DNA of 64,000 bases from a virus (taxonomy: Duplodnaviria > Heunggongvirae > Uroviricota > Caudoviricetes). The position numbers were made by a program, and so were the translations under genes. The notes under the pieces were generated by a model. The model was not told the origin of the DNA, did not search any database, and was given only the letters and a program-made list of their open reading frames with translations. Shown here in pieces: positions 1-61,084 of this stretch; within the stretch, counting starts at the first letter, position 1, and each line of letters starts with the position of its first letter. The stretch is from the IMG/VR virus record IMGVR_UViG_2721755676_000001. One strand, 5' to 3'.

Positions 1-162
1 AAAGTCGGCGGGCGTCTTGTAGCAGTATTGCCGGGCACTGCGCCAATACTGGACTGGATGACGATGGATAATTACGTTTATGCCAGAGGGAAGTCGTTTA
101 CCAACGAGTTTGAAGACACAGGGATCACAGTCAGCGTATACGTTTTCAAACGCGTTAAATGA
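1..162 (+). CDS. hypothetical protein, C-terminal fragment (5' end outside window)
   Basis: Frame 1 is open from window start to TGA at 160-162; no recognisable motif. Confidence 0.25.
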   Translation, partial: KVGGRLVAVLPGTAPILDWMTMDNYVYARGKSFTNEFEDTGITVSVYVFKRVK

Positions 163-182
163 TAGGTAAATGCTTACTTAAT
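160..182 (+). promoter_or_regulatory. class II palindromic promoter-proximal element (TGATAGGTAA...CTTACTTAAT)
   Basis: Shares the 10-mer TGATAGGTAA with copies near 47806 and 57273; lies about 40 nt upstream of the start at 224. Confidence 0.4.
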
Positions 183-223
183 TTATGTAAGAATGTAGTT
201 ACTAAACGATAAGAGAAAAACAC

Positions 224-928
224 ATGAGCAACCTCCAGTTAGAGCATTTTAACGTCACAGGCCATTCCGATTTTCCTTTCAAGTTTACATTGAAAGGTTA
301 TGCAGAGGATGCGGTAGGCCAGATCATTATTGATAAAGGCATCGTTAAGTTTGAGGGGAATTTTGATGAATCCGCGAAAACATTCATAGACTTCGTTGCC
401 AAACGTTGGAGCGAGCAATGGAAAGACCTGGAAAAGCGCGCTAGTGAGTTTGATCGGTTCATGGATGCAATGGATACAGCAAAAGAGGCTCTTGCTGCCG
501 GGACTCCGTTAGATCTGGAGTCACTTTTCAACGGAGAAGTGGCCTCTGCGATGTTCGCCACCATGTTCGCGGGTGAGTTCGTCCGCAGCGGTGCCAAAAA
601 CTACCTTGAGCTGGATTACAACGTCCCTGCAATTGGCGATTTCGTCGTTACCATCCAACGCAAAGAAGGTAAGACGCCAGGTGAACGCGTCGCAGAGCTT
701 GAGGCCGTTGTGGATCAGCGTAACGGAGAGTGTGACCGTTTGATCAACGAGCTTCATGCACTTCGGGAAGAAAGAATATGCGCGGGTAGCAATACACGTA
801 ATGCAGCGGATATCTACTTCCAGTTAGTTGAGGAATGCCAGATTCCACCAGGCGGCTCTCTTGTCGATTACGTCAGACATTTAATGACGGAAGTTAACTC
901 CAGCCATAAAGATGGTGAGGTGCGCTGA
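224..928 (+). CDS. hypothetical protein (234 aa)
   Basis: Long ORF with ATG start preceded by a class II element; the 15-mer GAAAAACACATGAGC at its start recurs at 55195-55209. No recognisable domain. Confidence 0.55.
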   Translation: MSNLQLEHFNVTGHSDFPFKFTLKGYAEDAVGQIIIDKGIVKFEGNFDESAKTFIDFVAKRWSEQWKDLEKRASEFDRFMDAMDTAKEALAAGTPLDLESLFNGEVASAMFATMFAGEFVRSGAKNYLELDYNVPAIGDFVVTIQRKEGKTPGERVAELEAVVDQRNGECDRLINELHALREERICAGSNTRNAADIYFQLVEECQIPPGGSLVDYVRHLMTEVNSSHKDGEVR

Positions 929-1308
929 TGTTTGGCATTGATGCACAGCGTATAGCAGCTTTTGCAAAAAGCCCTCTTGATAATCCCTTGTCTCGTAGTG
1001 AGCAAATGGCGCTGGCAAGGCTTTTTCTTCACATTCAAAAACAGGCAGACATTTTCAATAACATGCCTAATCAACCTATTCTGGATGGTCACATCCAGAT
1101 GGTCATTAACAGTCATGAGAAAGGCTGGGCTGCAATCGTCCCCTGCACAATTACATACAAGTTGGCGAAAGAGGTTCAAGAGTTTCGTAAAGCCAGTGTC
1201 GAATCGGAGTCTACCAAAGCCGCAATAAACACTCTTATTCGCATGGGGTTCACATGGAACGGTGGAGCCTACTGGCAAGCACCTCACCCCATTTTATCCG
1301 GCAATTAG
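928..1308 (+). CDS. hypothetical protein (126 aa)
   Basis: ATGA stop-start overlap with the preceding gene; weak hairpin GGCCA..TGGCC downstream (about 1341-1357). Confidence 0.5.
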   Translation: MFGIDAQRIAAFAKSPLDNPLSRSEQMALARLFLHIQKQADIFNNMPNQPILDGHIQMVINSHEKGWAAIVPCTITYKLAKEVQEFRKASVESESTKAAINTLIRMGFTWNGGAYWQAPHPILSGN

Positions 1309-1363
1309 ACGCTACAAATCCTTCGGCATGAATAAATAAAGGCCATAAGTTGTGGCCTTAAAT

Positions 1364-1427: not shown

Positions 1428-1475
1428 ATGTCTAGTATTTCCGAAGCTCATATGTTCGCCGCTGGCGCTCGGTGA
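1428..1475 (+). other. 15-codon micro-ORF (MSSISEAHMFAAGAR) between class I promoter and terminator
   Basis: ATG with GGAG 7 nt upstream; stops after 15 codons; may be a short transcript or remnant of a truncated early gene. Confidence 0.25.
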
Positions 1476-1572
1476 TGCTGCCAACTTACTGATTTAGTGT
1501 ATGATGGTGTTTTTGAGGTGCTCCAGTGGCTTCTGTTTCTATCAGCTGTCCCTCCTGTTCAGCTACTGACGG

Positions 1573-1605
1573 GGTGGTGCGTAACGGCAAAAGCACCACC
1601 TTTTT
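1573..1605 (+). terminator. intrinsic terminator, plus-strand only (GGTGGTGC..GCACCACC + TTTTT)
   Basis: 8-bp GC-rich stem followed by T5; ends 1 nt before the mrp stop codon. Confidence 0.55.
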
Positions 1606-1606
1606 A

Positions 1607-2707
1607 TCACACTGCGCGGAATGCGATTTCGCCAGGTATTACTTCACCTTGCCAATACATTTGGGCAGCAACGCGATCTGCGAGGTCACGATAAATAGCC
1701 GTAAATTCACTATCTGGACGACTAATAACGGTTGGTGTTCCGTTATCCAGATCTTCACGAAGAGAGATATGAAGTGGCATTTGGCCTAACAACTGCGTGT
1801 TGTATTTCTCGGCCAGTTTCTGTGCGCCACCGGTGCCAAAAATTGGCTCGTGATGACCGCAGTTACTGCAAATATGCACACTCATGTTTTCAACGATACC
1901 CAGTACCGGCACTTCGACTTTTTCGAACATCACAATGCCTTTCTTCGCATCGATCAGCGCGATGTCTTGCGGCGTAGTTACCACAACCGCACCAGTTACA
2001 GGAATGTTCTGCGCCAGCGTCAATTGAATATCACCAGTGCCCGGTGGCATATCGAGAACGAGATAGTCCAGATCAGGCCACAGTGTTTCCTGCAACATCT
2101 GCATCAGCGCCTTGCTGGCCATCGGTCCACGCCACACCATTGCATTGTCGTCGGTGACCAGATAACCAATAGAGTTGGTTGCCAGGCCATGAGACATGAT
2201 AGGTGCCATGTGAGTACCGTCCGGTGAGGTTGGACGTTGGTTTTCCGCGCCCAGCATGGTTGGAATTGATGGACCATAGATATCGGCATCCAAAATACCA
2301 ACTTTCGCACCTTCAGCAGCCAACGCCAGTGCCAGGTTTACCGCCGTGGAGGATTTACCCACGCCGCCCTTGCCTGAGCTGACGGCGATAATGTTCTTAA
2401 CGCCATTAATGCCTGGTTGGTTTTTGACGCGCTTAAGCGTGGCAATGTTGTACGACAGCTTCCAGTCAATAGCCTTTGCGCCAGTGATACGGAGCAGATC
2501 ACCACTACATTGCTCTTTCAGGTCTTCAAAAGGCTTATTCCACACGAAAGGCATGATTAGTTCGACATGCAGTGTGTCATCCATCAACGCAACATGGTGT
2601 AACGCTTTAAGCGTAGTCAGGTTGTGTTTCAGGGTTGGGTGCTGAAAATTAGCCAGCGTACCGGCTACCATTGCTCTCAGGGCATCCGGCGATTTGGACT
2701 CGCTCAT
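1607..2707 (-). CDS. apbC: iron-sulfur cluster carrier ATPase Mrp/ApbC
   Basis: 366 aa; P-loop [11 protein letters not shown]-terminal CSNCGHH; near-identical to enterobacterial Mrp as recalled. Confidence 0.95.
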
Positions 2708-2864
2708 CCCGTCTCCTTTATTTTAATTTGCGCAATTGTCGCCTTGTAGTGTACTCCAGCTACGACATTTAATCATTTATGAGAAATGCTGTTATCACAT
2801 GGCAGACATAAGGCCATTTTGTTACTATCAAGCCCCTTTTCACTACAAAGAAGTAATGCCTACT

Positions 2865-4898
2865 ATGACCCAAGTCGCGAAGAAAATTCTGGTGACGTGC
2901 GCGCTGCCGTACGCTAACGGCTCAATCCACCTCGGCCATATGCTGGAGCACATCCAGGCTGATGTCTGGGTTCGTTACCAGCGAATGCGCGGCCACGAGG
3001 TTAATTTCATCTGTGCCGACGATGCCCACGGTACGCCAATCATGCTGAAAGCACAGCAGCTTGGTATCACACCGGAACAGATGATTGGCGAAATGAGTCA
3101 GGAACATCAGACTGATTTCGCAGGCTTTAACATCAGCTATGACAACTATCACTCGACGCACAGCGAAGAGAACCGTCAGTTGTCCGAGCTTATCTATACT
3201 CGCCTGAAAGAGAACGGTTTTATTAAAAACCGCACCATCTCTCAGCTGTACGACCCGGAAAAAGGCATGTTCCTGCCGGACCGTTTTGTAAAAGGCACAT
3301 GCCCGAAATGTAAAGCGCCGGATCAATACGGCGATAACTGTGAAGTCTGCGGCGCGACATACAGCCCGACGGAACTGATCGAGCCGAAATCAGTGGTTTC
3401 TGGCGCTACACCGGTAATGCGTGATTCCGAACACTTCTTCTTTGATCTGCCTTCTTTCAGCGAAATGTTGCAGGCATGGACCCGCAGCGGTGCGTTGCAG
3501 GAGCAGGTGGCAAACAAAATGCAGGAGTGGTTTGAATCTGGCCTGCAACAGTGGGATATCTCCCGTGACGCACCTTACTTCGGTTTTGAAATTCCGAACG
3601 CACCGGGCAAATACTTCTACGTCTGGCTGGACGCGCCGATTGGCTACATGGGTTCCTTCAAGAATCTGTGCGACAAACGCGGCGACACTACCAGCTTCGA
3701 CGAATACTGGAAGAAAGACTCCACCGCCGAGCTGTACCACTTCATCGGCAAAGATATCGTTTACTTCCACAGCCTGTTCTGGCCTGCCATGCTGGAAGGC
3801 AGCAACTTCCGCAAGCCGACCAACCTGTTTGTTCACGGCTATGTGACGGTGAACGGCGCGAAGATGTCCAAGTCTCGCGGCACCTTTATTAAAGCCAGCA
3901 CCTGGCTGAATCATTTTGACGCCGACAGCCTGCGTTACTACTACACTGCGAAACTCTCTTCGCGCATTGATGATATCGATCTCAACCTGGAAGATTTCGT
4001 TCAGCGTGTGAATGCCGATATCGTTAACAAAGTGGTTAACCTGGCCTCCCGTAATGCAGGCTTTATCAACAAGCGTTTTGACGGCGTGCTGGCAAGCGAA
4101 CTGGCTGACCCGCAACTGTACAAAACCTTTACTGATGCCGCTGAAGTGATTGGCGAAGCATGGGAAAGCCGCGAATTTGGCAAAGCTATCCGTGAAATCA
4201 TGGCACTGGCTGACCTGGCTAACCGCTATGTTGATGAACAGGCTCCGTGGGTGGTGGCAAAGCAGGAAGGACGCGATGCCGATCTGCAGGCGATTTGCTC
4301 TATGGGCATTAACCTGTTCCGCGTGCTGATGACGTACCTGAAACCGGTACTGCCGAAACTGACTGAACGTGCAGAAGCATTCCTGAATACAGAACTGACC
4401 TGGGATGGTATCCAGCAACCGCTGCTGGGCCATAAAGTGAATCCGTTCAAGGCACTGTATAACCGCATCGATATGAAGCAGGTTGAAGCACTGGTGGAAG
4501 CATCCAAAGAAGAAGTGAAAGCCACAGCCGCACCGGTAACTGGCCCACTGGCTGACGACCCGATTCAGGAAACTATCACCTTTGACGACTTCGCCAAAGT
4601 TGACCTGCGCGTGGCGCTGATTGAAAACGCAGAGTTTGTAGAAGGTTCTGACAAACTGCTTCGCCTGACGCTGGATCTCGGTGGTGAAAAGCGTAATGTC
4701 TTCTCAGGCATCCGTTCCGCTTATCCAGATCCACAGGCACTGATTGGTCGTCACACCATTATGGTGGCTAACCTGGCACCACGTAAAATGCGCTTCGGTA
4801 TCTCTGAAGGCATGGTGATGGCTGCTGGCCCCGGCGGGAAAGATATCTTCCTGTTAAGCCCGGATGCTGGTGCTAAACCTGGCCACCAGGTTAAGTAA
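2865..4898 (+). CDS. metG: methionyl-tRNA synthetase
   Basis: 677 aa from the ATG at 2865 ([29 protein letters not shown] motif, KMSKS, zinc knuckle CPKC..C..C, C-terminal tRNA-binding domain); divergent from mrp as in E. coli-type chromosomes. Confidence 0.95.
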
Positions 4899-4946: not shown

Positions 4947-4981
4947 TATAGACACAACCCCTTCTGACTTTAACAAACTCT

Positions 4982-5046
4982 AAAACAATTTGTTTTCTAC
5001 CTTTTGTTGATTGAGATAATAAGTCATATAAGAAAACAAATTGTTT
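4982..5046 (+). promoter_or_regulatory. class I promoter/operator unit (two palindromes flanking an extended -10)
   Basis: AAAACAATTTGTTTT (4982-4996), tTGaGATAAT (5011-5020), AGAAAACAAATTGTTT (5031-5046) directly before SD AGGAG. Confidence 0.5.
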
Positions 5047-19869: not shown

Positions 19870-19905
19870 CTTCGTAAGACATGCCAGACCTAATTAAACA
19901 CCCCA

Positions 19906-19947
19906 GAAAACAAGTTGGTTAGCAGATGCAGTAAACAAGTTGTTTTA
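19906..19947 (+). promoter_or_regulatory. two class I operator palindromes upstream of terS
   Basis: AGAAAACAAGTTGGTT and TAAACAAGTTGTTTTA, followed by hairpin AGAGCGC..GCGCTCT and SD. Confidence 0.45.
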
Positions 19948-25358: not shown

Positions 25359-26279
25359 ATGCCAGAACAAAAGATGAAGATTACGGAAGAGGCATTTTCG
25401 GATTTTACGGGGCATATGTGCCGCGCCGGATTTACCAATTCTATCTCCGATGAACCTTTAACCGAGCGGCAACAAAGTCAGCTATCTGCTTGTTTGCAGG
25501 CGGTTCCCTTCTCCCAATCCGTAAACATAACTCCGGCTTCACCATCAGTTTTGGTTGGGAAAACTGTTCAACTTAGTGCAGGTATTAGTATGGGTAAGAG
25601 TGCCAGTTCATTCACCTGGAAGTCAGCCAATGATCAAATTGCAACCGTTAACGGCACTGGATTAGTAACTGGCGTAGCCCCAGGCAAAGTAAAAATTACT
25701 GCAACTGATCAGGAAACCCAGCTTTCCGCTTCAGTGGAAGTCACCGTAAATCCGGTAGCCGTTCAATCCGTAACGGTAACGCCAGAATCAACGTCTGTTG
25801 AGAAAGGGAAATCAGTCAGTCTGAAAGCGAATGTTCAGCCGTCAAATGCGACGAATAAGGCTGTTACCTGGTCTTCCAAAAATGAAGATAAGGCAACGGT
25901 AGACCAGAGCGGGAACGTAACTGGTGTAGAAGTTGGCACTGCGACGATTGAGATCGTTTCCCAAGATGGTAGCAAAAAGGCAACTGCAACGGTGGAAGTA
26001 ACTGCGCCTGTTGTGGCTGTTACAGGCGTCGAAATCGACCCAAATAGCACAACCGTTGAGGCAAACAAAACTGTTCAGCTGACCGCAAATGTCGAGCCGG
26101 CAGGAGCCACAAATAAAACCGTTACTTGGGAATCCAAAAATACCGAGTTTGCAACGGTGGACAGCGAAACCGGTGTTGTAACTGGTGTTGCGGCTGGCAC
26201 TGCCACAATCGAGGTTACTACCCAAGATGGTAGCCACAAAGCGACAGCGACCGTAGAGGTCACTGCCGCACAGGAATAA
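25359..26279 (+). CDS. Ig-like (Big_2-type) domain protein, probable head decoration
   Basis: Three repeats of the pattern VTV.P.S..V..GK.V.L.A.V.P..ATNK.VTW.S...ATVD..G.VTGV..G.ATI. Confidence 0.65.
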   Translation: MPEQKMKITEEAFSDFTGHMCRAGFTNSISDEPLTERQQSQLSACLQAVPFSQSVNITPASPSVLVGKTVQLSAGISMGKSASSFTWKSANDQIATVNGTGLVTGVAPGKVKITATDQETQLSASVEVTVNPVAVQSVTVTPESTSVEKGKSVSLKANVQPSNATNKAVTWSSKNEDKATVDQSGNVTGVEVGTATIEIVSQDGSKKATATVEVTAPVVAVTGVEIDPNSTTVEANKTVQLTANVEPAGATNKTVTWESKNTEFATVDSETGVVTGVAAGTATIEVTTQDGSHKATATVEVTAAQE

Positions 26280-30414: not shown

Positions 30415-33400
30415 CAAGGGAATGTCACAAAACGTAGAGTTTATCCTGTCGCTGGAAGACAAACAGTTTACAGCGTCAATCGATCGTGCGGGGAAACTGC
30501 TTACTCGATTTGGTGAGCAGGTAACAAAGCCTGCTCAAAAAATCCAAACCTTTGAACGCTCTTTGGGTTCGGTCGCCCGTATCATTGGCGTTCTGGAAAG
30601 CAAGCTCGATTCTACGGCAGATAAACTACAGGATGTAGCTGCCGGTTTTGAGCTTGCTTCAGATGCTACGCGTAAAATGCGTGGCAACATCACCAGCCTC
30701 AATTCTGGTCTTAAAGCCCTGATTGAGCGCGTCGATACGACAACTTCTTCAGTAGATAAACTCACCGCGTCATTACGTAAAGTGCAATCAGAGCTAAATG
30801 ATTTCTCTGATTGGGCGACCTATGCAAGCAAAAGCGCAAGCCGCTTTGGTACGGAGGTCAAAGAAGCCTCTGCGTCCGTGAGTGGCATGAATACGCGCCT
30901 TAATACCACGACGAAGCGACTCAGTAATTGGGGTGTCACAACGAGTCAGGCTGCCGAGGGACTGAAAAAGGTTCGTGAGCAGATGGACGAAGTTATCGGA
31001 CGTCAGCAACTGATTAGCAAGCCGGTACGCGTTCGTACATCTGGAAGTGGCGATGGTGGCAGCGGGCGGCGTAGCGGCTCTGGCCATAGCGATAAAAGTA
31101 ACGAAGGAGGTATGTTCTCTGGCCTTCGTGGCAACATTTTCCTGCTTGGCGAGATCGGAGATGCAGCCAGAACGGTTACTGACATCATGTTTGGGTGGCA
31201 GAAGCCTATTGTTGAAGCTGCGGCCGAAATGGAACGTATGCGGGTGATGCTTCGAGGGTTGAATAAGGAGAAGTCCAACCCGGGCCAGGCTGCCGCTGAT
31301 GATATGAAGTACATCGTAGACATGGCTCAAAATGCGCCGTTCGCGATGCAGGCGTTAACAGATTCCTTCGTGAAGTTTCGTTCTGCTGGCTTAGATCCAA
31401 CCGATGGCTCTCTGAAGGCGCTGGTGGACTCCGTTGCTCGTTTTGGTGGTGATAGTGAGCTGTTGAAACGTGCGGCTGTGGCCGTTCAGCAGATGTCCGG
31501 TAAGGGCGTCGTGTCAATGGAAGAGCTACGTCAGCAATTAGGTGAAGCCGTTCCTAACGCGATGCAGGCAATGGCAGACGCCGCAGGCATCACTATGGGG
31601 GAACTGACTAAAGCCGTTGCCAGCGGTACGGTTGAGGCAAAACAGGCGTTGTCTCTGATGTTTGTTGGTCTGCGTGCGGAGAATGAGAACGCAGCGAAAG
31701 ACATGATGCAAACCTACACAGGTGCGCTGGCGCAACTTCAGACGTCATTCACGTTATTTGCTGATCGGGTTGGTCAGGCCGGATATCTGGATTCTCTATC
31801 GAAGGGGATGAAAGAACTGGCTTCAATCATGAATAGCGCCGAAGGGATTTCGTTTGCCAATTCTTTAGGTTCGGGGTTAACAACGGCAATCGATGGGTTG
31901 CGTCAGCTTGCTCAATGGTTAGCAAAGAACCAAGAGCTGGTAATTAATCTCGGTAAGGTCGTGGCCGCGATGGTTGCGTTCAAACTGATGCGAGCATGGA
32001 TCATGGGGGTAGTTGGCGCTGGGAGCCAGATGGTTAGCACCTTTGCCACGATGGCGACCGCCATACAGACTCCATTTAACCTCGGCGCTACAGCAGTAAC
32101 TCGATTCAATCGTGCGGCACGTATGGGGCTGGCTCCGATCCCCTCTCTTATTTTCGCCATCCGTGGGGCGATTACGGGGCTTAAAGGCGCTTTTGCTGGC
32201 CTGACTGCGTTTATTGCGGCGAATCCGATAGGTTTTGTTTTCACTGCTGCAATGACCGCTGTTGCTGGCTTAATCACGTATATGACCATGCTTCGTAGCG
32301 AAACTTCAAAGGTCGTTGACGAGATTAGGAAAATACCAGAAGCGATGACGGCGGCTAAACGTGCACAGATGGCCGAGTATAAAGCGCGTCTTGAGCAACA
32401 AATCACGCAAAAGGAACAAGAGTTAAAATCTGGCGAAAAGGTGGTTTATGGGCCGGGTATGGCCGGAACTACAGTAAAGATTAATCATGATGAACGTAAG
32501 CGAATAGAAAATGAGCTAAATGAACTTCGTAAGAAACGCGATAAAACCAATGAAACTATTGCCAGAGGGGATTTGGCTGTAGCCAAACGTCTGGCAAAAG
32601 AGACGGCAGAATCCCAGATAGAGAAAATACTCGAAGAGAATAGAGACTTTGCGGCAACGTTCGTGAAAGCTCGTCAGGAGGCTCTGGAGAAAATCCAGAA
32701 AATCAAGGATGACGGTTCACTTTCGGATGACGAAAAGAACAAGCTATTGGCACCGTTACGTGAAACGGTAAACAAAAGCTATCTGGAGCCTGCGCAAAAA
32801 CTGGTTGATTCACTTTCTTCTCGTAAGAATGCGACCGAGAAGCAAATCGCGACTCTTAATGATCAGCTTGAAAAAGCGAAAAAGGAAGGAAATACCGAGC
32901 AGATTCAGAAACTGCAAGGAAGTATTCGTGGCTATCAGGAGCATTTGGAAGTCGTTGCTCAGGAACTGACTCAGGCAGAGTTTAAGAGGGATAACGCGGC
33001 CAAAAGTGGTAATGGCTTAGTGTCAATCAATGGAGATGTTCTGGGGTTAGGTACAACTGATAAAGCTGCTCAGAAGGCGCTGGCGCAATATATGCGAAAC
33101 CAGATGGATTCTGCGACTTATCAGCGTACTTTGCCTGACGGCACTCCGATGATGGACTTCGAAGGTAAGCCGATTATTGGGCCTAAACAACTCAAGACGC
33201 AGCTTAATTTGCAGAAAGCATCCAGCGCCAGCTCTCTGGAGAAAATGAGCGATGAAGAGCGTGCCGCAGCCATTGCTGCACTAACTAAAGCTCGTGAACA
33301 GGATGCAGCAGCTGCCGAGAAAGCAGCCCAACGATCAGCTAACGCCTCGCAGCGTGCGGCCAAGAAGGAACAGGCAGCGCAACAGAAACTGGCAGCCGGA

Positions 33401-42250: not shown

Positions 42251-42343
42251 TGGTGGAAAAAAAATTTTATATCGGTAAAAATAGGTAAGTATCTACTTAA
42301 TAGCGGGCAAGGATAGCCCGCCAAATCAAGGAGCATATTCAAC

Positions 42344-45300
42344 ATGTGGTACAGGGAAGGTACTATCACATTTACACAGGGCAGCAATACTCTGGTTGGG
42401 GCAGGGACAGCCTGGAACGTAACAGCTAATGGTGTGTTGCCGGGGATGATCGTCATTGGCCCCGACAATAAGCTGTATGAGATCAAGCGCGTAACCAGTG
42501 ATACGAACATTGTTCTCTCAGAACCTTATACCGGCGAAACTCAGTCTGAAGTTCCGTGCCGAATCATTACGACCTATGAAGGCGACTTAACACAGTTTAG
42601 CGCGCGCTTTACTGCGCTAATGTCGCGTATGTCGGCTGATTCCAAGTCCATACGCAGTTGGTTGACTGCGCTGGATGAGGTGACAATCGAGCGTGAAGAC
42701 GGTACAGAAGTGACCGTTAAGCCGCTAATGCAGATCGCCAACGAGCACAACGAAAACGTTGAGTGGTATAAAAATAACACTGACGCGATTGATGCTGCTG
42801 GCGACAAAGCTCGTGAGGCGGCGGCCAGTGCTGCCGCAGCAGCAAAAAGCGCCAATGCCGCTGGAGAAAAAGCCTCTCAAGCGTCTCAAAGTGCATCCGC
42901 TGCGGCATCCTCACAAAGTGCCGCAAGTGCGAGTGCAACTGCTGCGAAAAAATCTGAAACGAATGCTGCAGCGTCACAAAAATCTGCAGCCACTTCTGCA
43001 TCCACCGCGACCACGAAGGCGTCAGAAGCTGCCACCTCAGCCCGGGATGCGGCGGCCTCAAAAGAGGCAGCGAAATCATCAGAAACGAACGCATCCTCAA
43101 GCGCCAGTAGTGCCGCTTCCTCGGCAACGGCGGCAGGAAATTCCGCGAAGGCGGCAAAAACGTCCGAGACGAACGCCAGGTCTTCTGAAACGGCAGCGGG
43201 ACAGAGCGCCTCAGCTGCGGCAGGCTCAAAAACAGCGGCTGCGTCGTCTGCCAGTGCCGCGTCAACAAGTGCCGGGCAGGCCTCAGCCAGTGCCACCGCC
43301 GCCGGAAAATCGGCAGAAAGTGCCGCATCGTCTGCTTCAACAGCCACAACGAAGGCTGGCGAAGCCACTGAACAGGCCAGCGCAGCAGCGAGGTCTGCTT
43401 CCGCAGCGAAGACATCCGAAACGAACGCGAAAGCGTCGGAAACCAGCGCAGAATCCTCAAAAACGGCTGCCGCATCGTCCGCCAGTTCGGCGGCGTCATC
43501 GGCATCATCGGCGTCTGCTTCAAAAGATGAGGCGACCAGACAGGCGTCAGCAGCGAAGGGCAGCGCCACGACGGCATCCACGAAAGCAACAGAGGCGGCA
43601 GGCAGTGCGACGGCAGCATCTCAGAGCAAAACTGCTGCTGAATCCGCTGCGACTCGTGCGGAAGCTGCTGCTGATCGTGCTGAAGAGATTGCCGGTGCAG
43701 TTGCGATGGAAGACGCAAGCCTTACAACTAAAGGTGTTGTGAAACTTAGCAGTGCTGTCGACAGCACCAGTGAATCGCTGGCCGCAACGCCAAAAGCAGT
43801 TAAAGCAGCCAATGACAATGCGAATAGCAGGGTGCCATCTAACCGAAAAGTTAACGGTAAAGCACTGACTGCGGATATCAAATTAACGCCGAAAGATATT
43901 GGTACTTTAAATTCAGTAACGATGTCTTTCTCTGGCGGGGCAGGGTGGTTCAAACTGGCTACGGTTACCATGCCACAAGCGAGTTCCATCGTTTACATCG
44001 CATTGATTGGTGGCGCTGGTTACAACGTCGGCTCCCCACATCAGGCAGGCATTTCAGAACTGGTTCTACGAGCAGGCAATGGAAACCCCAAAGGGATTAC
44101 AGGTGCTTTGTGGAAGCGTACAGCTGTCGGATTAACGAATTTCGCCTGGATCAACACATCCGGCGATACATATGATATTTACGTTGAGATTGGCAATTAT
44201 GCGACTCGTGTAAATATCCATTGGGATTGTACTGCAAATGCGACAGTTTCTATTTATACCTCGCCAACATATTCAGCGAGTAAGCCTTCCAGCGTTACCG
44301 ATGGTGTTGTTTATACGATGTATAGCACACATCAGAAACCGACGCCGTTAGATATTGGAGCACTGCCAACAACCGGAGGAACAGTTTCAGGTCCGTTGTC
44401 TGTTACAGGTGGATTAACTGGTTCATTGAATGGTAATGCAAGTACAGCCACGAAATTGCAGACGGCAAGATCTATCGGTGGAGTTGTTTTCGACGGTTCT
44501 GCAAATATTAACCTTCCAGGTGTAAACACTACGGGTAATCAGAACACCACTGGTAATGCTGCAACTGCTACAAAACTTCAGACTGCAAGAAAAATATCCG
44601 GTGTTCCATTTGATGGTTCTACTGATATCACTTTAACCGCTGCGCATGTTGCCGCTTTCGCAAGAAGGGCAACAGGGTCATATGCGGATGCTGATGGTGG
44701 CGTGCCGTGGAATGCTGAATCTGGTGCTTACAATGTAACTAGAACAGGCGACAGTTATATTCTTGCCAACTTTTATACCGGTGTAGGTAGTTGCCGGACC
44801 CTGCAGATGAAGGCGCATTACAGAAATGGAGGTCTGTTCTACCGTTCCTCAAGAGATGGCTATGGTTTTGAAAGTGGTTGGGAGCAGGTTTACACGACTG
44901 GATTTATGCCTCAGCCGGCTGATATAAACGCGCCAACCGCTGCCGCTGGATGGTTAAATAGTGGTAACGGAACGGCATTTACGACTGCTCAATTTATAAC
45001 TTGGCTAAATAATCAGGGGGCATTTACAAACAAACATTGGATCGCACGGTGCTCATGGGCTTACGCCAACAATAATTATATAGACGACACTGGTTGCGGT
45101 AGGATCGATCTATCTGGTTCCGTGATTGAGGTGTTTAGTAATAAGGCAACAAGCCACTACACTATTCGTGTTACAACGACAACAACATCGGGTCATGGTG
45201 GTGTTAACAATGCGGAATTTATTTATGTGTACAATGGAAGTGATTATGCACCAGGCTGGCGTCGTTCTTATAACACTAGAAACAAACCAACAGCTTCTGA

Positions 45301-46642
45301 TGTAGGAGCATTATCGCTTTCTGGAGGAGCGTTAACTGGCGGATTAACTGCTGCTGGCGAGATTATTTCAAAATCGGCGAATGGTCTGCGCATTGCCTAC
45401 GGAAACTACGGATTCTTTATCCGAAACGATGGTTCAAGCACATACTTCATGTTGACCGATTCGGGTAACAGCCTGGGAACCTATAATAGTTTAAGGCCGC
45501 TTATCATTAACAATGCCAATGGTGCTGTTAGGATCGGTAATGGACTCAATGTTACTGGCGGCATCAATGGTAGTTTGAACGGTAATGCTTCAACAGCTAC
45601 GAAGTTGCAAACAGCGAGAAACATCAATGGTGTTAAGTTTGATGGTTCAGGCGATATCAACATTAATACATTGGTATCTCGTGGCCGAGTTACGGCGTTA
45701 AGCGGCTCTACTCAAGGCACTGCTGGCATTCAAATGTATGAGGCGTACAACAATAGCTACCCGACCACGTATGGCAACGTATTGCACATGAAAGGTGCGA
45801 GTGCTGCTGGTGAGGGCGAGTTGCTTATTGGCTGGAGTGGTACGAGCGGTGCACATGCGCCAGTTTTCATTCGCTCACGAAGAGATAACACAGGTGCAGC
45901 ATGGTCAGCGTGGGCGCAGGTATATACCGCTAAGGATTCAATCCCTGGTGTGAATACAACTGGTAATCAGAACACTACTGGTAATGCCGCAACCGCCACA
46001 AAATTGCAGACAGCAAGGAAAATTGCTGGTGTGGCGTTTGATGGCTCTGCCGATATAACTTTGACTGCGGCTAACCTTAATGCTTACACGAAAACAGAGG
46101 TAGCAAACCTTCTAAGCTCCTATGCAAGCAGATCATCACTGACAGGCTATAGTGGCAACCTGGATATTGTTGCTGAAACACTGGTTGTCAAATCAGGCGG
46201 TAGTGGAGGGTTTGCTATATGGGATATTGGCACAACTACTAGCGGTGCCAATATGTACATTGATCCAAACCCAGGTATCAATACAGTTTGGCGTTCAACG
46301 TCTTCAAGGCGCTATAAAAAGGATATTGAAACATTACAAGATCGATATGCTGATGAACTTTTGTCATTAAGACCTGTTTGGTATCGTTCAATTTGTCGAG
46401 GTGACCGAAAGGATTGGGGGTATTACGGCCTTATTGCTGAAGAGGTTGGTGAGATTGCCCCGCAATATGTCCATTGGCGTGAACCAACAAATAATGATTC
46501 TCCAGAAGATATTTCCTCAAATGGTATGGTCGCTGAAGGAGTGATGTATGAGCGTTTGGTTGTACCACTCATTCATCATATTCAGCAATTGACCAAAAGG
46601 GTTGAGGAGCTTGAAACGAAGTTAAATTCACCTAAAGAATAA
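42344..46642 (+). CDS. side tail fibre protein with C-terminal intramolecular-chaperone (peptidase S74-like) domain
   Basis: Ala/Ser-rich low-complexity region, three GNASTATKLQTAR..GV.FDGS fibre repeats, C-terminal DIVAE...RRYKKDIE...GLIAEEV segment. Confidence 0.8.
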   Translation: MWYREGTITFTQGSNTLVGAGTAWNVTANGVLPGMIVIGPDNKLYEIKRVTSDTNIVLSEPYTGETQSEVPCRIITTYEGDLTQFSARFTALMSRMSADSKSIRSWLTALDEVTIEREDGTEVTVKPLMQIANEHNENVEWYKNNTDAIDAAGDKAREAAASAAAAAKSANAAGEKASQASQSASAAASSQSAASASATAAKKSETNAAASQKSAATSASTATTKASEAATSARDAAASKEAAKSSETNASSSASSAASSATAAGNSAKAAKTSETNARSSETAAGQSASAAAGSKTAAASSASAASTSAGQASASATAAGKSAESAASSASTATTKAGEATEQASAAARSASAAKTSETNAKASETSAESSKTAAASSASSAASSASSASASKDEATRQASAAKGSATTASTKATEAAGSATAASQSKTAAESAATRAEAAADRAEEIAGAVAMEDASLTTKGVVKLSSAVDSTSESLAATPKAVKAANDNANSRVPSNRKVNGKALTADIKLTPKDIGTLNSVTMSFSGGAGWFKLATVTMPQASSIVYIALIGGAGYNVGSPHQAGISELVLRAGNGNPKGITGALWKRTAVGLTNFAWINTSGDTYDIYVEIGNYATRVNIHWDCTANATVSIYTSPTYSASKPSSVTDGVVYTMYSTHQKPTPLDIGALPTTGGTVSGPLSVTGGLTGSLNGNASTATKLQTARSIGGVVFDGSANINLPGVNTTGNQNTTGNAATATKLQTARKISGVPFDGSTDITLTAAHVAAFARRATGSYADADGGVPWNAESGAYNVTRTGDSYILANFYTGVGSCRTLQMKAHYRNGGLFYRSSRDGYGFESGWEQVYTTGFMPQPADINAPTAAAGWLNSGNGTAFTTAQFITWLNNQGAFTNKHWIARCSWAYANNNYIDDTGCGRIDLSGSVIEVFSNKATSHYTIRVTTTTTSGHGGVNNAEFIYVYNGSDYAPGWRRSYNTRNKPTASDVGALSLSGGALTGGLTAAGEIISKSANGLRIAYGNYGFFIRNDGSSTYFMLTDSGNSLGTYNSLRPLIINNANGAVRIGNGLNVTGGINGSLNGNASTATKLQTARNINGVKFDGSGDININTLVSRGRVTALSGSTQGTAGIQMYEAYNNSYPTTYGNVLHMKGASAAGEGELLIGWSGTSGAHAPVFIRSRRDNTGAAWSAWAQVYTAKDSIPGVNTTGNQNTTGNAATATKLQTARKIAGVAFDGSADITLTAANLNAYTKTEVANLLSSYASRSSLTGYSGNLDIVAETLVVKSGGSGGFAIWDIGTTTSGANMYIDPNPGINTVWRSTSSRRYKKDIETLQDRYADELLSLRPVWYRSICRGDRKDWGYYGLIAEEVGEIAPQYVHWREPTNNDSPEDISSNGMVAEGVMYERLVVPLIHHIQQLTKRVEELETKLNSPKE

Positions 46643-53781: not shown

Positions 53782-55122
53782 ATGACCGAACTTTGCCATA
53801 CAGGACGCGGGCTGTCCGAAGAGTTTGATGAAGATTTCCAGAACAGACTGACGGCATATTTTTGTCGTGATCACGAGTTTCTTACTCGTGCGGGAGATCT
53901 GGTTGTGCCTAGCCAATTTGCCAATGCGGCCAATGCCATATTGGTTAATATGGTTTCGGGCTATTACCGTATGTACAAGAGCGCGCCCTCTTCATCTGCA
54001 ATTCTGGATATGCTTAAGCGTGCGAAACGCGATAAGACTATCCGTGAGGAACTATTCGCCGATGTTGTTGCTGCGTTTAAGCGCATTCTTGCAGAAAAAT
54101 TGTCCGATACCTCGTACATGGTTGACCAGGTATCAACCTTCGCAAAAAGTGTAGCGTTTGATGATGCTCTGATTAAGGCTGCTGAACTGAAAGAGAAAGG
54201 CGACTTTCACGGGGCGATGGCAATCATGGCCAAGGTTCAGCAGATTGGATCGAACGAAGCGACCGGAATCTATGACTACTACACCTCCGCAAGTGAGCGA
54301 TTGAAAGCGCGTGAATATGAGGCTTCAGAGGAGTATGTACCAAACAGTATTACAACTGGACTCCCTCTTCTCGATAGGTTGCTGTACCAAAAAGGCTGGG
54401 CAAAGCGCGAAATGGTGCTCTTCATGGGGTTCGCTAAATCCGGTAAATCGACCGCAATGGGTGAGTTTTCCATAAACGCAACACTTGCTGGCTACAATGT
54501 TCTGTATCTCTCGCTGGAGGTTCACACCACCATTTTATCCGACCGTTTTGATGCAAGATTGTCGGAGACGGAAATGTCCAAGCTGGTGGAACGGCGCGAT
54601 GAGGTTCATCGTAAGTTGGCAGAGTTGGGAGCCACGAAGGGGATTGGTAGTTTGTGGGTGGTTGAGCGTCCGTCAGGAAGTATGTCACCGGCAGATCTGG
54701 ACCGTATGCTTAACAGCATGAAAGCCAATGGCATGGTGCCTGACATGGTTGTTGTCGACTACGCAGATTTGATGCGTGCCAGTTATGATCTTCGTGATGA
54801 TCGCGCCAACATTCGTAGTATCTACACCGATTTACGTGCTCTTTATGACAAGCATAACGTTGCTGGGATCACGGCATCGCAGACAAACCGTGAAGGTGGC
54901 GCGTCAGAAGTTGCCACAATGATGCACGCTGCCGACAACATCGAAAAAGTACGTATTGCTGACCTGGTAATAACGATCAACAAAACCGAAGAAGAAGAAG
55001 CGAAAGGAGAGGCTCGTCTCTACTTTGCTGGTTCACGTAACCAGCAGGGAGGGATCAGCATTCGCGTTAAACAAAACCTCGAACAAATGCGCTTCATTGA
55101 GCGAATCTTAGACGTTACCTAA
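53782..55122 (+). CDS. DnaB-like replicative helicase
   Basis: RecA-type core: Walker A GFAKSGKST, Walker B VVVDYADLM, ITASQTNREG. Confidence 0.8.
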   Translation: MTELCHTGRGLSEEFDEDFQNRLTAYFCRDHEFLTRAGDLVVPSQFANAANAILVNMVSGYYRMYKSAPSSSAILDMLKRAKRDKTIREELFADVVAAFKRILAEKLSDTSYMVDQVSTFAKSVAFDDALIKAAELKEKGDFHGAMAIMAKVQQIGSNEATGIYDYYTSASERLKAREYEASEEYVPNSITTGLPLLDRLLYQKGWAKREMVLFMGFAKSGKSTAMGEFSINATLAGYNVLYLSLEVHTTILSDRFDARLSETEMSKLVERRDEVHRKLAELGATKGIGSLWVVERPSGSMSPADLDRMLNSMKANGMVPDMVVVDYADLMRASYDLRDDRANIRSIYTDLRALYDKHNVAGITASQTNREGGASEVATMMHAADNIEKVRIADLVITINKTEEEEAKGEARLYFAGSRNQQGGISIRVKQNLEQMRFIERILDVT

Positions 55123-55203
55123 AAAATAAGCGTGGAGAACACCTCCACGCTTGATTCATTGGTGAAACAACTTTTCTTTTGCCAAACCACAAAAGAAAAA
55201 CAC

Positions 55204-56385
55204 ATGAGCCTTTATGTTATATCAACATTTAGGTTGGTCACAATATTGCCTGTTAAAAGTGGAATTATCGTGAGCGAGCTGAAAGAGCTAATTACCGAAT
55301 TAGATTTTGAACAATGGTTGGATACTGAAGGTATCGTTTATCGACGTGGAGGCGTGAGTACTCGCGGTCGTGAAGTGAATATCAAGGAGTGTCCGGTATG
55401 TGGCAGCTCCAACTGGAAGGTATATTTCAATCTGACCAGTGGCGTCGGTAAATGCTTCGCTGGTGATCATCCCGAAGAGATTCAGTTCAATAAGCTGGTC
55501 TTCCTCAAGCACTACAGCGGCAAATCACGACGACAGTTCGAGGAATATGTGCAGAACGCCCTTCTTTCCCAGGGGTGGGCACCAAAGAAAGAAGAGCTAG
55601 TGCTTGCAAGCACAGTCGAGTTAGAGGGGCCAGTTGCACTCCCTCGTCATTACGAGCTTCCTATAGATGGCCGTCTTCCAGACTATCTGGTTGAACGAAA
55701 CATATCGCCTGAAATGGCAAAGTATTTTGACCTACGATACTGCGTCGAAGGCAAGTACGCCTATGTAGATCCGTATACAGATCAGGTTAAAGGACAGATA
55801 TTCGATATGCGAATACTGATACCGGTTTACGATCTGGATGGGGTAATGAAGACATTTCAGGGACGAGACATTACCGGTACAGCAGAACGCCGCTACCTCT
55901 TTCCTATGCAACTTCCAGCTTCAGGTAAGTTTCTCTACAACGGCCATAATGCAGTCGGCAAACAGACTGTAGTTGTCTGTGAGGGGGCGTTCGATGTTAT
56001 GGGGGTTAAACGAGCTATTTTTGACGAAGAAACATTACGTGATTACGTGGAACCAATAGGAACGTTCGGGATGCATCTATCTGGTAACACCACTCAGGAT
56101 GCAGAAGATCAGTTAGGCGCGTTCCTGACGCTCAAGGCGCGTGGGTTACGTAATGTGATCATGATGTGGGATAGTGAAAAGCAAGCTATACGCAACACTA
56201 TGGCCGCAGCCAGGCGACTGACCAGTATCGGTCTTAATGTCAAAGTTGCGTGTTTGGGTGAGGAAGGACTCGACCCGGGCGGTGCAACGCCAGAACAAAT
56301 TATCAAAGCCTATTATCGGGCAAAACCGTATACCAAACAGTTGGAGTTGCAAAGCAAGGTTTTGGGCATTAAGGCTCTATCATAA
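55204..56385 (+). CDS. DNA primase (zinc ribbon + Toprim)
   Basis: CPVCGSSNW...C..GDH zinc-binding element and VVCEGAFDVMG Toprim motif; ATG 55204 chosen because the listed 55132 start spans the upstream regulatory motif. Confidence 0.7.
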   Translation: MSLYVISTFRLVTILPVKSGIIVSELKELITELDFEQWLDTEGIVYRRGGVSTRGREVNIKECPVCGSSNWKVYFNLTSGVGKCFAGDHPEEIQFNKLVFLKHYSGKSRRQFEEYVQNALLSQGWAPKKEELVLASTVELEGPVALPRHYELPIDGRLPDYLVERNISPEMAKYFDLRYCVEGKYAYVDPYTDQVKGQIFDMRILIPVYDLDGVMKTFQGRDITGTAERRYLFPMQLPASGKFLYNGHNAVGKQTVVVCEGAFDVMGVKRAIFDEETLRDYVEPIGTFGMHLSGNTTQDAEDQLGAFLTLKARGLRNVIMMWDSEKQAIRNTMAAARRLTSIGLNVKVACLGEEGLDPGGATPEQIIKAYYRAKPYTKQLELQSKVLGIKALS

Positions 56386-56460
56386 CAATCACCTTTAAAA
56401 TAAGTAGATGATTACTTATCTTTCTGTGAGAATACTTTCATCTGTTAGCTAGGAGTTGGT

Positions 56461-60526: not shown

Positions 60527-60601
60527 GATGGTGTAGCTCAGCGGTAGAGCAGTTGGCTGTTAACCAACTGGTCGGTGGTTCGAATCCACCCACCATCGCC
60601 A
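60527..60601 (+). tRNA. tRNA-Asn (anticodon GTT)
   Basis: Canonical cloverleaf with T-loop TTCGAAT and 3' CCA; sequence differs from chromosomal E. coli tRNA-Asn as recalled. Confidence 0.9.
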
Positions 60602-60606
60602 ATTTA

Positions 60607-60693
60607 GGGGAGTTAGTCCGTAGGGGCAGCGGAGTAGACTGTAAATCTACTGTCATGGCGACTCGGGTGGTTCGACTCCATCACTCCCCACCA
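60607..60693 (+). tRNA. tRNA-Tyr (anticodon GTA)
   Basis: Class II tRNA with long variable arm, anticodon loop CTGTAAA, 3' CCA. Confidence 0.85.
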
Positions 60694-60697
60694 AATT

Positions 60698-60773
60698 GCC
60701 GGTTTAGCTCAGTTGGTAGAGCGCCTGCCTTGTAAGCAGGATGTCAGCGGTTCGAGTCCGCTAACCGGCACCA
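60698..60773 (+). tRNA. tRNA-Thr (anticodon TGT)
   Basis: Perfect cloverleaf with anticodon loop CTTGTAA, T-loop TTCGAGT, 3' CCA. Confidence 0.9.
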
Positions 60774-60845
60774 ATACAACGATAAGATCATTACGGTTAA
60801 TCGTCGTTCATGTGCACAATGACTGGTCGAAAGGTAGTGATCTTA

Positions 60846-60995
60846 CCGTTGTGGTGGATTCGCAGACTGATGCGATAGCTTTCTTGGATGTTAGGGAAAT
60901 GCGGCCGCAAATCTTCCCTTTCGCGAGCGGTGATCGTCCGTAGTCCTAATTGGCTGCACCGTATGCCGGAGATTCAGTACCGGCCACCACAACGG
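60846..60995 (+). ncRNA. structured RNA-like element between tRNA-Thr and tRNA-Ser (function unknown)
   Basis: 12-bp closing stem CCGTTGTGGTGG/CCACCACAACGG around internal hairpins; ends 2 nt before tRNA-Ser; no canonical tRNA fold. Confidence 0.3.
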
Positions 60996-60997
60996 CC

Positions 60998-61084
60998 GGA
61001 GAGTAGGGAGCATGGTGCTCAAGCGGTCTTGAAAACCGTCCCATTGCGCAAGCGATGATGGTTCGATTCCATTACTCTCCGCCA
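60998..61084 (+). tRNA. tRNA-Ser (anticodon TGA)
   Basis: Class II tRNA with 3-bp D stem, long variable arm, anticodon loop CTTGAAA, 3' CCA. Confidence 0.85.

Follow-up and report, generated by a model that had tools for sequence, protein, structure and literature searches.

A two-gene unit at the left end of the window

We analysed a 64,000-nucleotide (nt) stretch of Caudoviricetes DNA (IMG/VR record IMGVR_UViG_2721755676_000001; hereafter the window), focusing on two overlapping open reading frames near its left end, ORF1 and ORF2. Both are present where a sequence-only reading of the same DNA had placed them, at 224-928 and 928-1308, and together they probably form a small transcription unit in a variable, 'ea-like' accessory region between a gene for a DUF4942-domain methylase and a gene for an HD-domain protein. 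The features of the unit are listed below.

162-180, plus strand: class II motif ATAGGTAAATGCTTACTTA, a partial palindrome of the operator or promoter type that precedes the ORF1 start by 44 nt
186-194, plus strand: TGTAAGAAT, an extended -10-like element read from the sequence, directly 3' of the class II motif; putative promoter
211-215, plus strand: AAGAG, resembling a weak Shine-Dalgarno element, 8 nt ahead of the ORF1 ATG and sharing 2 nt with the start context at 214-229
224-928, plus strand: ORF1, 234 amino acids (aa), ATG start; a mosaic of three modules as judged from its sequence
914-920, plus strand: GGTGAGG, Shine-Dalgarno element of ORF2 within the 3' end of ORF1, as read from the sequence
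926-930, plus strand: stop/start junction TGATG (GCGC-TGA-TG; TGA at 926-928, ATG at 928-930), a 1-nt overlap
928-1308, plus strand: ORF2, 126 aa, ATG start; a small, predicted all-helical protein
1339-1359, plus strand: 9-bp GC-rich hairpin AAGGCCATAAGTTGTGGCCTT after ORF2, called on the minus strand by the terminator scan

The two frames had been described as overlapping by ATGA. The junction is in fact TGATG, annotated likewise in pM160133_p3, pAVS0968-B and the phage-plasmid Cyrano, and an ATGA overlap takes its place in the orthologues from phage SSU5. The GGTGAGG element just upstream makes translational coupling of the two genes plausible, and ORF2 is probably translated by coupling at this junction. 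The ratio of nonsynonymous to synonymous substitution rates (dN/dS) relative to Cyrano is 0.15 for ORF1 and 0.21 for ORF2, and 0.19 for ORF1 relative to SSU5; purifying selection of this strength (0.15-0.21) indicates that both are real genes.

The class II element proposed upstream of ORF1 was confirmed at 162-180. Its pattern, ATARGTARNTNNNTACYTA, is matched 15 times in the window, at 11 sites, where 0.02 matches would be expected. Nearly all of the sites are intergenic and lie 13-100 nt before plus-strand genes that include parB, portal, tail and replication-region genes. Copies of the motif (ATARGTAAGTnnnTACYTA) are spread over the element, at 162, 16580, 21871, 23378, 28869 and 35365, with further positions at 42281, 47806, 52966, 56400, 59759 and 62246, and they stand ahead of early-type and structural operons alike. 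The site before ORF1 is conserved in both Cyrano and SSU5, despite an ORF1 identity of only 72-77% (aa) in the latter. The motif could be the operator of a master repressor, like the dispersed C1 operators of phage P1, or a phage-specific promoter element. Directly after it, TGTAAGAAT is invariant across the window, Cyrano and SSU5, and a similar TGTGAGAAT comes after the class II site at 56399; as a sigma-70 consensus scan called no promoter 5' of ORF1, we infer the extended -10 role of TGTAAGAAT from its sequence and position.

The start context of ORF1 had been described as shared with 55195-55209. The 16-mer AGAAAAACACATGAGC is indeed exact at 214-229 and 55194-55209, within a longer stretch of 26/31 identities (repeat family D20), and a related version precedes the start of a DnaB-like helicase gene at 53782. 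Its significance is nevertheless marginal (4 hits with three or fewer mismatches versus 1.07 expected, a count of 4 being reached in 2 of 100 shuffles), and the likeness probably reflects a common A-rich initiation context. At the other end of the unit, the RNA fold of 1305-1430 has a free energy of -25.9 kcal/mol (z = -2.76), and the hairpin at 1339-1359 is a probable weak or bidirectional terminator closing the two-gene unit. It is followed by one copy of a second repeated motif at 1360-1375 (class I, AGAAAACAANTTGTTT; 19 matches in the window versus 0.4 expected), and with this hairpin and repeat after ORF2 the pair looks like a self-contained unit.

The window is part of an SSU5/Cyrano-type phage-plasmid

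Over bases 1-1620 the window is 100% identical to pM160133_p3, an E. coli plasmid of 113 kb, and many other plasmids of 100-125 kb match this part at 98-99%. The rest of the window encodes terminase, portal, capsid, tape-measure and tail-fibre genes together with parB, primase, DnaB-like helicase and ligase. The whole window is part of a phage-plasmid of about 110 kb of the SSU5/Cyrano type; a chromosome carrying an insert is ruled out. By BLAST, the window past its first ~12 kb is mostly 95-98% identical to pM160133_p3, with insertions and deletions, and the last ~0.9 kb is 80% identical, so that the window and pM160133_p3 are different plasmids.

To follow the pair across genomes, we searched 5,426 complete E. 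coli genomes with bases 163-1330. The region occurs in 189 of them, at 195 places, all 195 on plasmids and none on a chromosome; the carriers are 100-125 kb in size, apart from two at ~215 kb, and the full ORF1-ORF2 pair is present in 163. The idea that the pair is a chromosomal neighbour of mrp was rejected on this count of 0 chromosomal copies. Orthologues are present in phages SSU5, Cyrano, CMS-2020a and PhiR41_1, as well as in Klebsiella SSU5-like phages, so the pair does co-occur with this kind of element. Likewise, the 196 ORF1 homologues are all on enterobacterial plasmid or phage contigs of ~100-115 kb, from E. coli, E. fergusonii, Salmonella (including Typhi), Citrobacter, Enterobacter, Klebsiella and Kluyvera. 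These genes are already catalogued: PHROGs lists them, a published phage genome annotates them, and no fewer than 163 complete E. coli plasmids carry them.

Gene order is conserved around ORF1. In pAVS0968-B, Cyrano, SSU5 and Klebsiella pJN2-26, the DUF4942 methylase gene is followed by ORF1, a variable stretch and then the HD-domain gene. ORF1 is therefore a member of the conserved SSU5-type gene set, found only on the element and in a syntenic position, and ORF2 is restricted to certain lineages. The full ORF2 occurs in E. coli and Shigella, and a short form of 93 aa occurs in Salmonella, Enterobacter and some E. coli plasmids. In pJN2-26 ORF2 is missing and the HD gene directly follows ORF1, so the two genes are not an obligate pair. 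Several ORF2 homologues (P0127, P0129, P0134, P0136 and P0151-P0155) shift into an alternative frame (window ORF 962-1228) or have unrelated C-termini, which suggests frequent frameshifts, whether from decay of a dispensable gene or from short-read assembly errors.

The closest known relatives are in Cyrano (pLF82), where CYRAN_91, annotated as 'Ead-Ea22 protein', is 98% identical to ORF1 and CYRAN_92, an 'Eaa-like protein', is 97% identical to ORF2. The SSU5 orthologues are more distant, SSU5_096 at 72-77% and SSU5_097 ('putative Eaa protein') at 62%, and the 33-residue tail that ends ORF2 is absent from SSU5_097. Both phages resemble the window in having the DUF4942 methylase gene and a class II motif upstream and overlapping stop and start codons. 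Cyrano differs from the window on the downstream side: Eae-like and Ea22-like genes follow its pair, the latter product scoring 4.6e-34 against Pfam Ead_Ea22. More generally, Cyrano and most E. coli plasmids have extra accessory genes after the pair (Eae-like and Ea22-like, or HD-domain) that have been lost behind an insertion sequence (IS) remnant, of IS1, in the window.

ORF1 is a mosaic of modules shared with phage Ea-type proteins

The sequence-only reading found no recognisable domain in either protein. This holds for Pfam, NCBIfam, PADLOC and PDB sequence searches, in which ORF1 and ORF2 have no significant match, and structure searches gave no fold match for either. It does not hold for phage protein families: ORF1 belongs over its full length to PHROG family phrog_8364 (3e-147), its N-terminal module also matches phrog_3451 (3e-39), and ORF2 belongs over its full length to phrog_10451 (2.8e-82), all three labelled 'unknown function'. 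The searches yielded no function by fold or Pfam domain; they did yield module-level homology to Ead/Ea22 and EaA proteins.

Three modules can be told apart in ORF1: an N-terminal module at about residues 15-75, predicted to be three strands and a long helix; a highly conserved core at about 90-160; and, entered through a predicted coiled-coil helix at 152-182, a C-terminal module at 186-229. The core has at least 60 nearly invariant positions across genera, with the signature GTPLDLESLF...FAGEFVR.GA.NYLEL...TVTIQRKEGKTP, and is found in about 500 protein clusters from phages of Enterobacteriaceae, Bordetella and Aeromonas; it has neither a Pfam family nor a fold match. When ORF1 profiles were run against 1.84 billion cluster representatives, each of the 520 hits at E <=1e-3 was to a single ORF1 module. 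The homologues themselves swap modules, with a different N-terminus in P0120 (an Ead/Ea22 N-terminus joined to the ORF1 core), the core deleted in P0119, and other C-termini in P0088, P0099 and P0105.

The company kept by each module points to the Ead/Ea22 proteins. Members of Pfam Ead_Ea22 make up 28/42 of the proteins that share the C-terminal module and 6/49 of those that share the core; DUF551 is present in 4/42 of the former, and none of the 13 proteins sharing the N-terminal module has any Pfam domain. Compared directly, ORF1 residues 156-229 and residues 110-185 of HkaG, from phage HK620, share 45% identity (E 4e-16), and we found no similarity between ORF1 and P22 EaD. At the level of sequence, then, ORF1 is a three-module mosaic that shares its C-terminal module with true Ead/Ea22 family proteins. 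The two groups are alike in their modular build, in their place among variable early-region genes, in being non-essential, and in a central coiled coil, which for ORF1 is a prediction; the ORF1 core is also seen fused to Ead/Ea22 N-termini. Unlike the Ead/Ea22-like proteins (PF13935: lambda Ea22, P22 EaD and HkaG), ORF1 lacks the defining N-terminal region (MSxIxxQALRE...LLDE) and is carried on a phage-plasmid without the int-xis/exo context. By eye, the core stretch FVVTIQRKEGKTP can be likened to FLVVRHPGKTP of lambda Ea22, and profile alignment by hhalign picks out the same GKTP stretch at ~1% probability; we do not rely on this likeness.

ORF2 has a short EaA-type leader

ORF2 is predicted to fold into five helices, with a predicted local distance difference test (pLDDT) score of 71 and no fold relatives. 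Its first 34 residues are 56% identical to residues 1-34 of P22 EaA (E 4.6e-7, tblastn search of a single genome). Residues 1-93 match SSU5_097, and the tail at 94-126 occurs only in the E. coli lineage, its matches beyond the orthologues of ORF2 being insignificant (E >=0.04). P22 EaA consists of this N-terminal region followed by a dATP/dGTP pyrophosphohydrolase domain (PF04447) and DUF551 (PF04448); ORF2 has only the first part, with no hit to PF04447 or PF04448, whereas P22 EaA hits both (1.2e-49 and 1.4e-16). A protein of the P1-like phage-plasmid SJ46 also begins with this short N-terminal module. As far as sequence goes, the 'Eaa-like' label of ORF2 therefore comes from a 34-residue leader module alone.

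Adjacency to mrp is an IS1 deletion scar

The pair had been placed at the edge of a host-type segment, next to mrp. Physically it does adjoin mrp in the window, but this is the product of an IS1-associated deletion. The flanking features are as follows.

1-162, plus strand: 3' end of a gene for a DNA methyltransferase with a DUF4942 domain (its TGA stop at 160-162), the conserved neighbour upstream of ORF1
1360-1416, no strand assigned: class I-type intergenic repeats, of the AGAAAACAANTTGTTT family, with a flanking repeat, ahead of the next gene (families D6 and D16)
1428-1470, plus strand: start of the HD-domain (HD_4) gene, 14 codons left, truncated by IS1; collinear with the HD gene of pAVS0968-B up to 1470
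1471-1597, plus strand: IS1 left-end remnant of 127 nt (RefSeq: 'IS1 family transposase, incomplete')
1607-2707, minus strand: plasmid-borne apbC (mrp), a neighbour outside the pair, its 3' end facing the IS1 remnant

The final 44 aa of the gene at 1-162 match the C-terminal end of phrog_6263 (DNA methyltransferase), and RefSeq annotates a DUF4942 protein in both pM160133_p3 and pAVS0968-B (Pfam DUF4942 2e-20 on the pAVS0968-B orthologue). The intact HD orthologue scores 1.3e-18 against Pfam HD_4, and is described as ppGpp (guanosine tetraphosphate)-hydrolase-like. The 127-nt remnant was assigned to IS1 by comparison with what we take to be the IS1 reference sequence.

With breakpoints mapped against pAVS0968-B, the remnant stands in place of ~5.9 kb that comprises, in that plasmid, the HD gene, several hypothetical genes, a toprim-domain gene, a gene for a DNA-binding protein and a HumD-like gene. 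The right junction of the deletion falls within the microhomology GCACC(G/A)CC. Most relatives have an intact HD-domain gene and ~5.9 kb more genes between the pair and apbC-metG, and the IS1-scar junction is common to only about 7 plasmids. The pair thus adjoins mrp because an IS1-associated deletion removed ~5.9 kb in one plasmid lineage.

The apbC(mrp)-metG block itself is complete at 1607-4898, and matches 222 plasmid places in the complete E. coli genomes. It is also present in Cyrano, CMS-2020a and PhiR41_1; the SSU5 record of the phage collection gave no match. The plasmid copies are at least 95% identical to each other and ~90% identical (DNA) to the chromosomal E. coli genes. The element acquired this block long ago, and the acquisition is common to the family; flanking host DNA is ruled out. 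A second methionyl-tRNA synthetase and an iron-sulfur (Fe-S) carrier on a phage-plasmid are more unusual than the ORF1-ORF2 pair. The practical value lies in a corrected picture of the window: it is phage-plasmid throughout, its mrp-metG block was acquired, and the adjacency of the pair to mrp is an IS1 scar.

Expression of the orthologues and a proposed role

Published RNA data for E. coli LF82, the host of Cyrano, bear on when these genes are used. In overnight lysogeny broth (LB) cultures, the normalised reads of CYRAN_91 and CYRAN_92 are 8.8 and 10.1, close to those of terminase (7.1 and 8.4) and major capsid (7.4) (PMC9928086, S1 table). By comparison, the apbC-like CYRAN_99, listed as a moron, reaches 92, the HumD-like CYRAN_98 148, and metG 16 (PMC9928086); the apbC copy is 9-fold over the prophage background in LF82 lysogens, and metG is not (PMC9928086). 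In macrophages at 6 h, CYRAN_91 and CYRAN_92 are up, to a log2 value of about 5-6, along with the major capsid gene MCP (PMC9928086). With background expression in lysogens, the Cyrano orthologues behave as repressed genes of the lytic programme, unlike lysogeny cargo or morons.

The reading that we favour, with a probability of roughly 0.6 for the whole, is that ORF1 and ORF2 make up an Ea-type accessory unit that modulates the development of the phage-plasmid. Transcription would start at a promoter that the class II motif at 162-180, with TGTAAGAAT after it, overlaps; the pair would stay silent while the element replicates as a plasmid-prophage and come on in the lytic programme, and ORF2 would be translated by coupling to ORF1. 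By analogy with lambda Ea22, ORF1 may be a non-enzymatic, oligomeric adaptor drawn from the Ead/Ea22-like pool. The interchangeable globular modules of ORF1 would attach to a host or phage protein and in this way influence the choice between lysis and lysogeny, or the physiology of the host, soon after induction or infection. ORF2 would be a small companion that is optional. The model for this is lambda Ea22, an early, non-essential and pro-lysogenic protein that is tetrameric via a coiled coil and whose target is unknown (PMC7093339, PMC10834534). The pro-lysogenic phenotype is known only for the Ea22 of lambda and of Stx phage (PMC7093339).

Several points weigh against this interpretation. 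ORF1 has no PF13935 Ead_Ea22 hit even at E <=1 (gathering score 27 bits), although the control proteins HkaG (2.1e-29), P22 EaD (4.6e-20) and Cyrano CYRAN_94 (4.6e-34) are readily detected, and aligning the ORF1 family profiles to lambda Ea22 with hhalign yields a probability of 0.5-1% (E 0.05-0.1). The helix at 152-182 is long in an AlphaFold2 (AF2) model whose pLDDT is only 57 and has weak coiled-coil Pfam hits (E 0.03-0.2); at that model confidence, the predicted coiled coil and oligomerisation are tentative. The fold searches for both proteins came back empty. Because lambda Ea22 itself has no known molecular mechanism, the analogy carries a class of phenotype and not a mechanism. Finally, the expression data come from the related plasmid Cyrano in LF82 rather than from the plasmid of the window, and the case as a whole is built from sequence, context and orthologue expression.

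Alternative explanations

The sequence-only reading took the pair as candidate cargo of the element, of unknown function. In the form weighed here, these would be moron-type genes of benefit to the host that were acquired with or beside the mrp-metG segment. That the genes belong to a mobile element stands, and in the window they do adjoin apbC-metG and have no recognisable Pfam domain; cargo status, on the other hand, is contradicted by synteny and expression, in a window that is phage-plasmid from end to end. The adjacency is a secondary IS1 deletion in about 7 plasmids, with ~5.9 kb of phage genes intervening elsewhere, and the position of ORF1 is conserved across genera, including SSU5, whose record gave no apbC-metG match. 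Since, in addition, the modules are common to phage proteins and the orthologues are at background in lysogens, in which the apbC copy is 9-fold higher, we regard host-benefit cargo as improbable. A toxin-antitoxin or addiction module that stabilises the plasmid is more improbable still and was rejected. Two small overlapping genes on a low-copy plasmid are suggestive of such a module, and the family has other systems of this type (KacT, RelE and HicAB in Cyrano), but neither protein hits a toxin, antitoxin or defence family in PADLOC, Pfam or NCBIfam, and the Cyrano orthologues are not expressed in the plasmid state. Moreover, ORF1 occurs without ORF2 in pJN2-26, and an intact ORF1 lies beside frameshifted ORF2 variants, some of which may be assembly errors.

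A stronger competitor, if still an unlikely one, is that ORF1, ORF2 or both neutralise a host defence early in infection, as do other genes found in variable early regions beside phage methylases. The pair lies directly 3' of a DNA-modification methylase gene, in a region that also has a Dam-like methylase and genes like P1 TciA/TciB; the extreme shuffling of modules and the patchy presence of ORF2 are what an arms race would leave; expression is confined to the lytic phase; and the paper on the C-terminal domain (CTD) of lambda Ea22 likens that domain to the T4 antitoxin Dmd. Neither protein, however, resembles a known anti-defence protein or has an informative fold match, and the conservation of the ORF1 core, with its near-invariant positions, is atypical of fast-evolving inhibitors. 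PADLOC gave no hit, its library being one of defence proteins without anti-defence proteins, and in the literature we found nothing specific on the function of the SSU5 and Cyrano orthologues or on an anti-defence role of Ead/Ea22 proteins. A related and equally speculative suggestion is that the ORF1 core is an undescribed effector domain, mounted on interchangeable coiled-coil scaffolds and directed at a host defence or pathway, with ORF2 as a lineage-specific partner. If the core controls induction or counters defence, it would matter for the spread of SSU5-type elements; of the present results, it is the context that points this way.

We retain the Ea-type accessory unit as the preferred description of ORF1 and ORF2. 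Membership of the element, gene order, module mosaicism, selection, the class II motif and, for the orthologues, silence in lysogens are shown by the data, whereas the promoter, translational coupling, oligomerisation and a part in development are inferred. Mosaic Ea-type accessory genes of temperate phages are a well-known kind of gene that is functionally obscure, and the pair is a further example of this 'dark matter', whose functions are obscure even in lambda.

Other features of the window

The class I palindromic motif that follows ORF2 at 1360 recurs at 4980-5046, 7527, 8011, 8915, 9679, 19905-19945, 50819 and 53747, and is concentrated in the accessory region at 5-10 kb and ahead of replication genes. 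A cluster of four tRNA genes lies near the right end of the window.

60527-61084: tRNA cluster, four genes (Asn-GTT, Tyr-GTA, Thr-TGT and Ser-TGA)

Relative to pM160133_p3, the window has a stretch at 12.3-16.1 kb that does not align, with ~1.1 kb of extra sequence inside it. An IS3 element splits the tape-measure gene of pM160133_p3 and is missing from the window (31252-32576, compared with L009 32545-33856), so the gene appears intact there. Internal repeats were seen in the tail-fibre genes, with units of 79-151 nt at 44432-46094 and of 26 nt at 42941-43428, and in a gene for an Ig-like domain protein at 25917-26266, with units of 89 nt. Phage-plasmids of the SSU5 type are frequent in clinical Enterobacteriaceae, and the resistance genes that they carry include dfrA51. 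In pM160133_p3, this trimethoprim resistance gene lies with a thymidylate synthase gene in a nucleotide-metabolism module (L001 1094-3085), upstream of the part that corresponds to the window (see PMC12217456).

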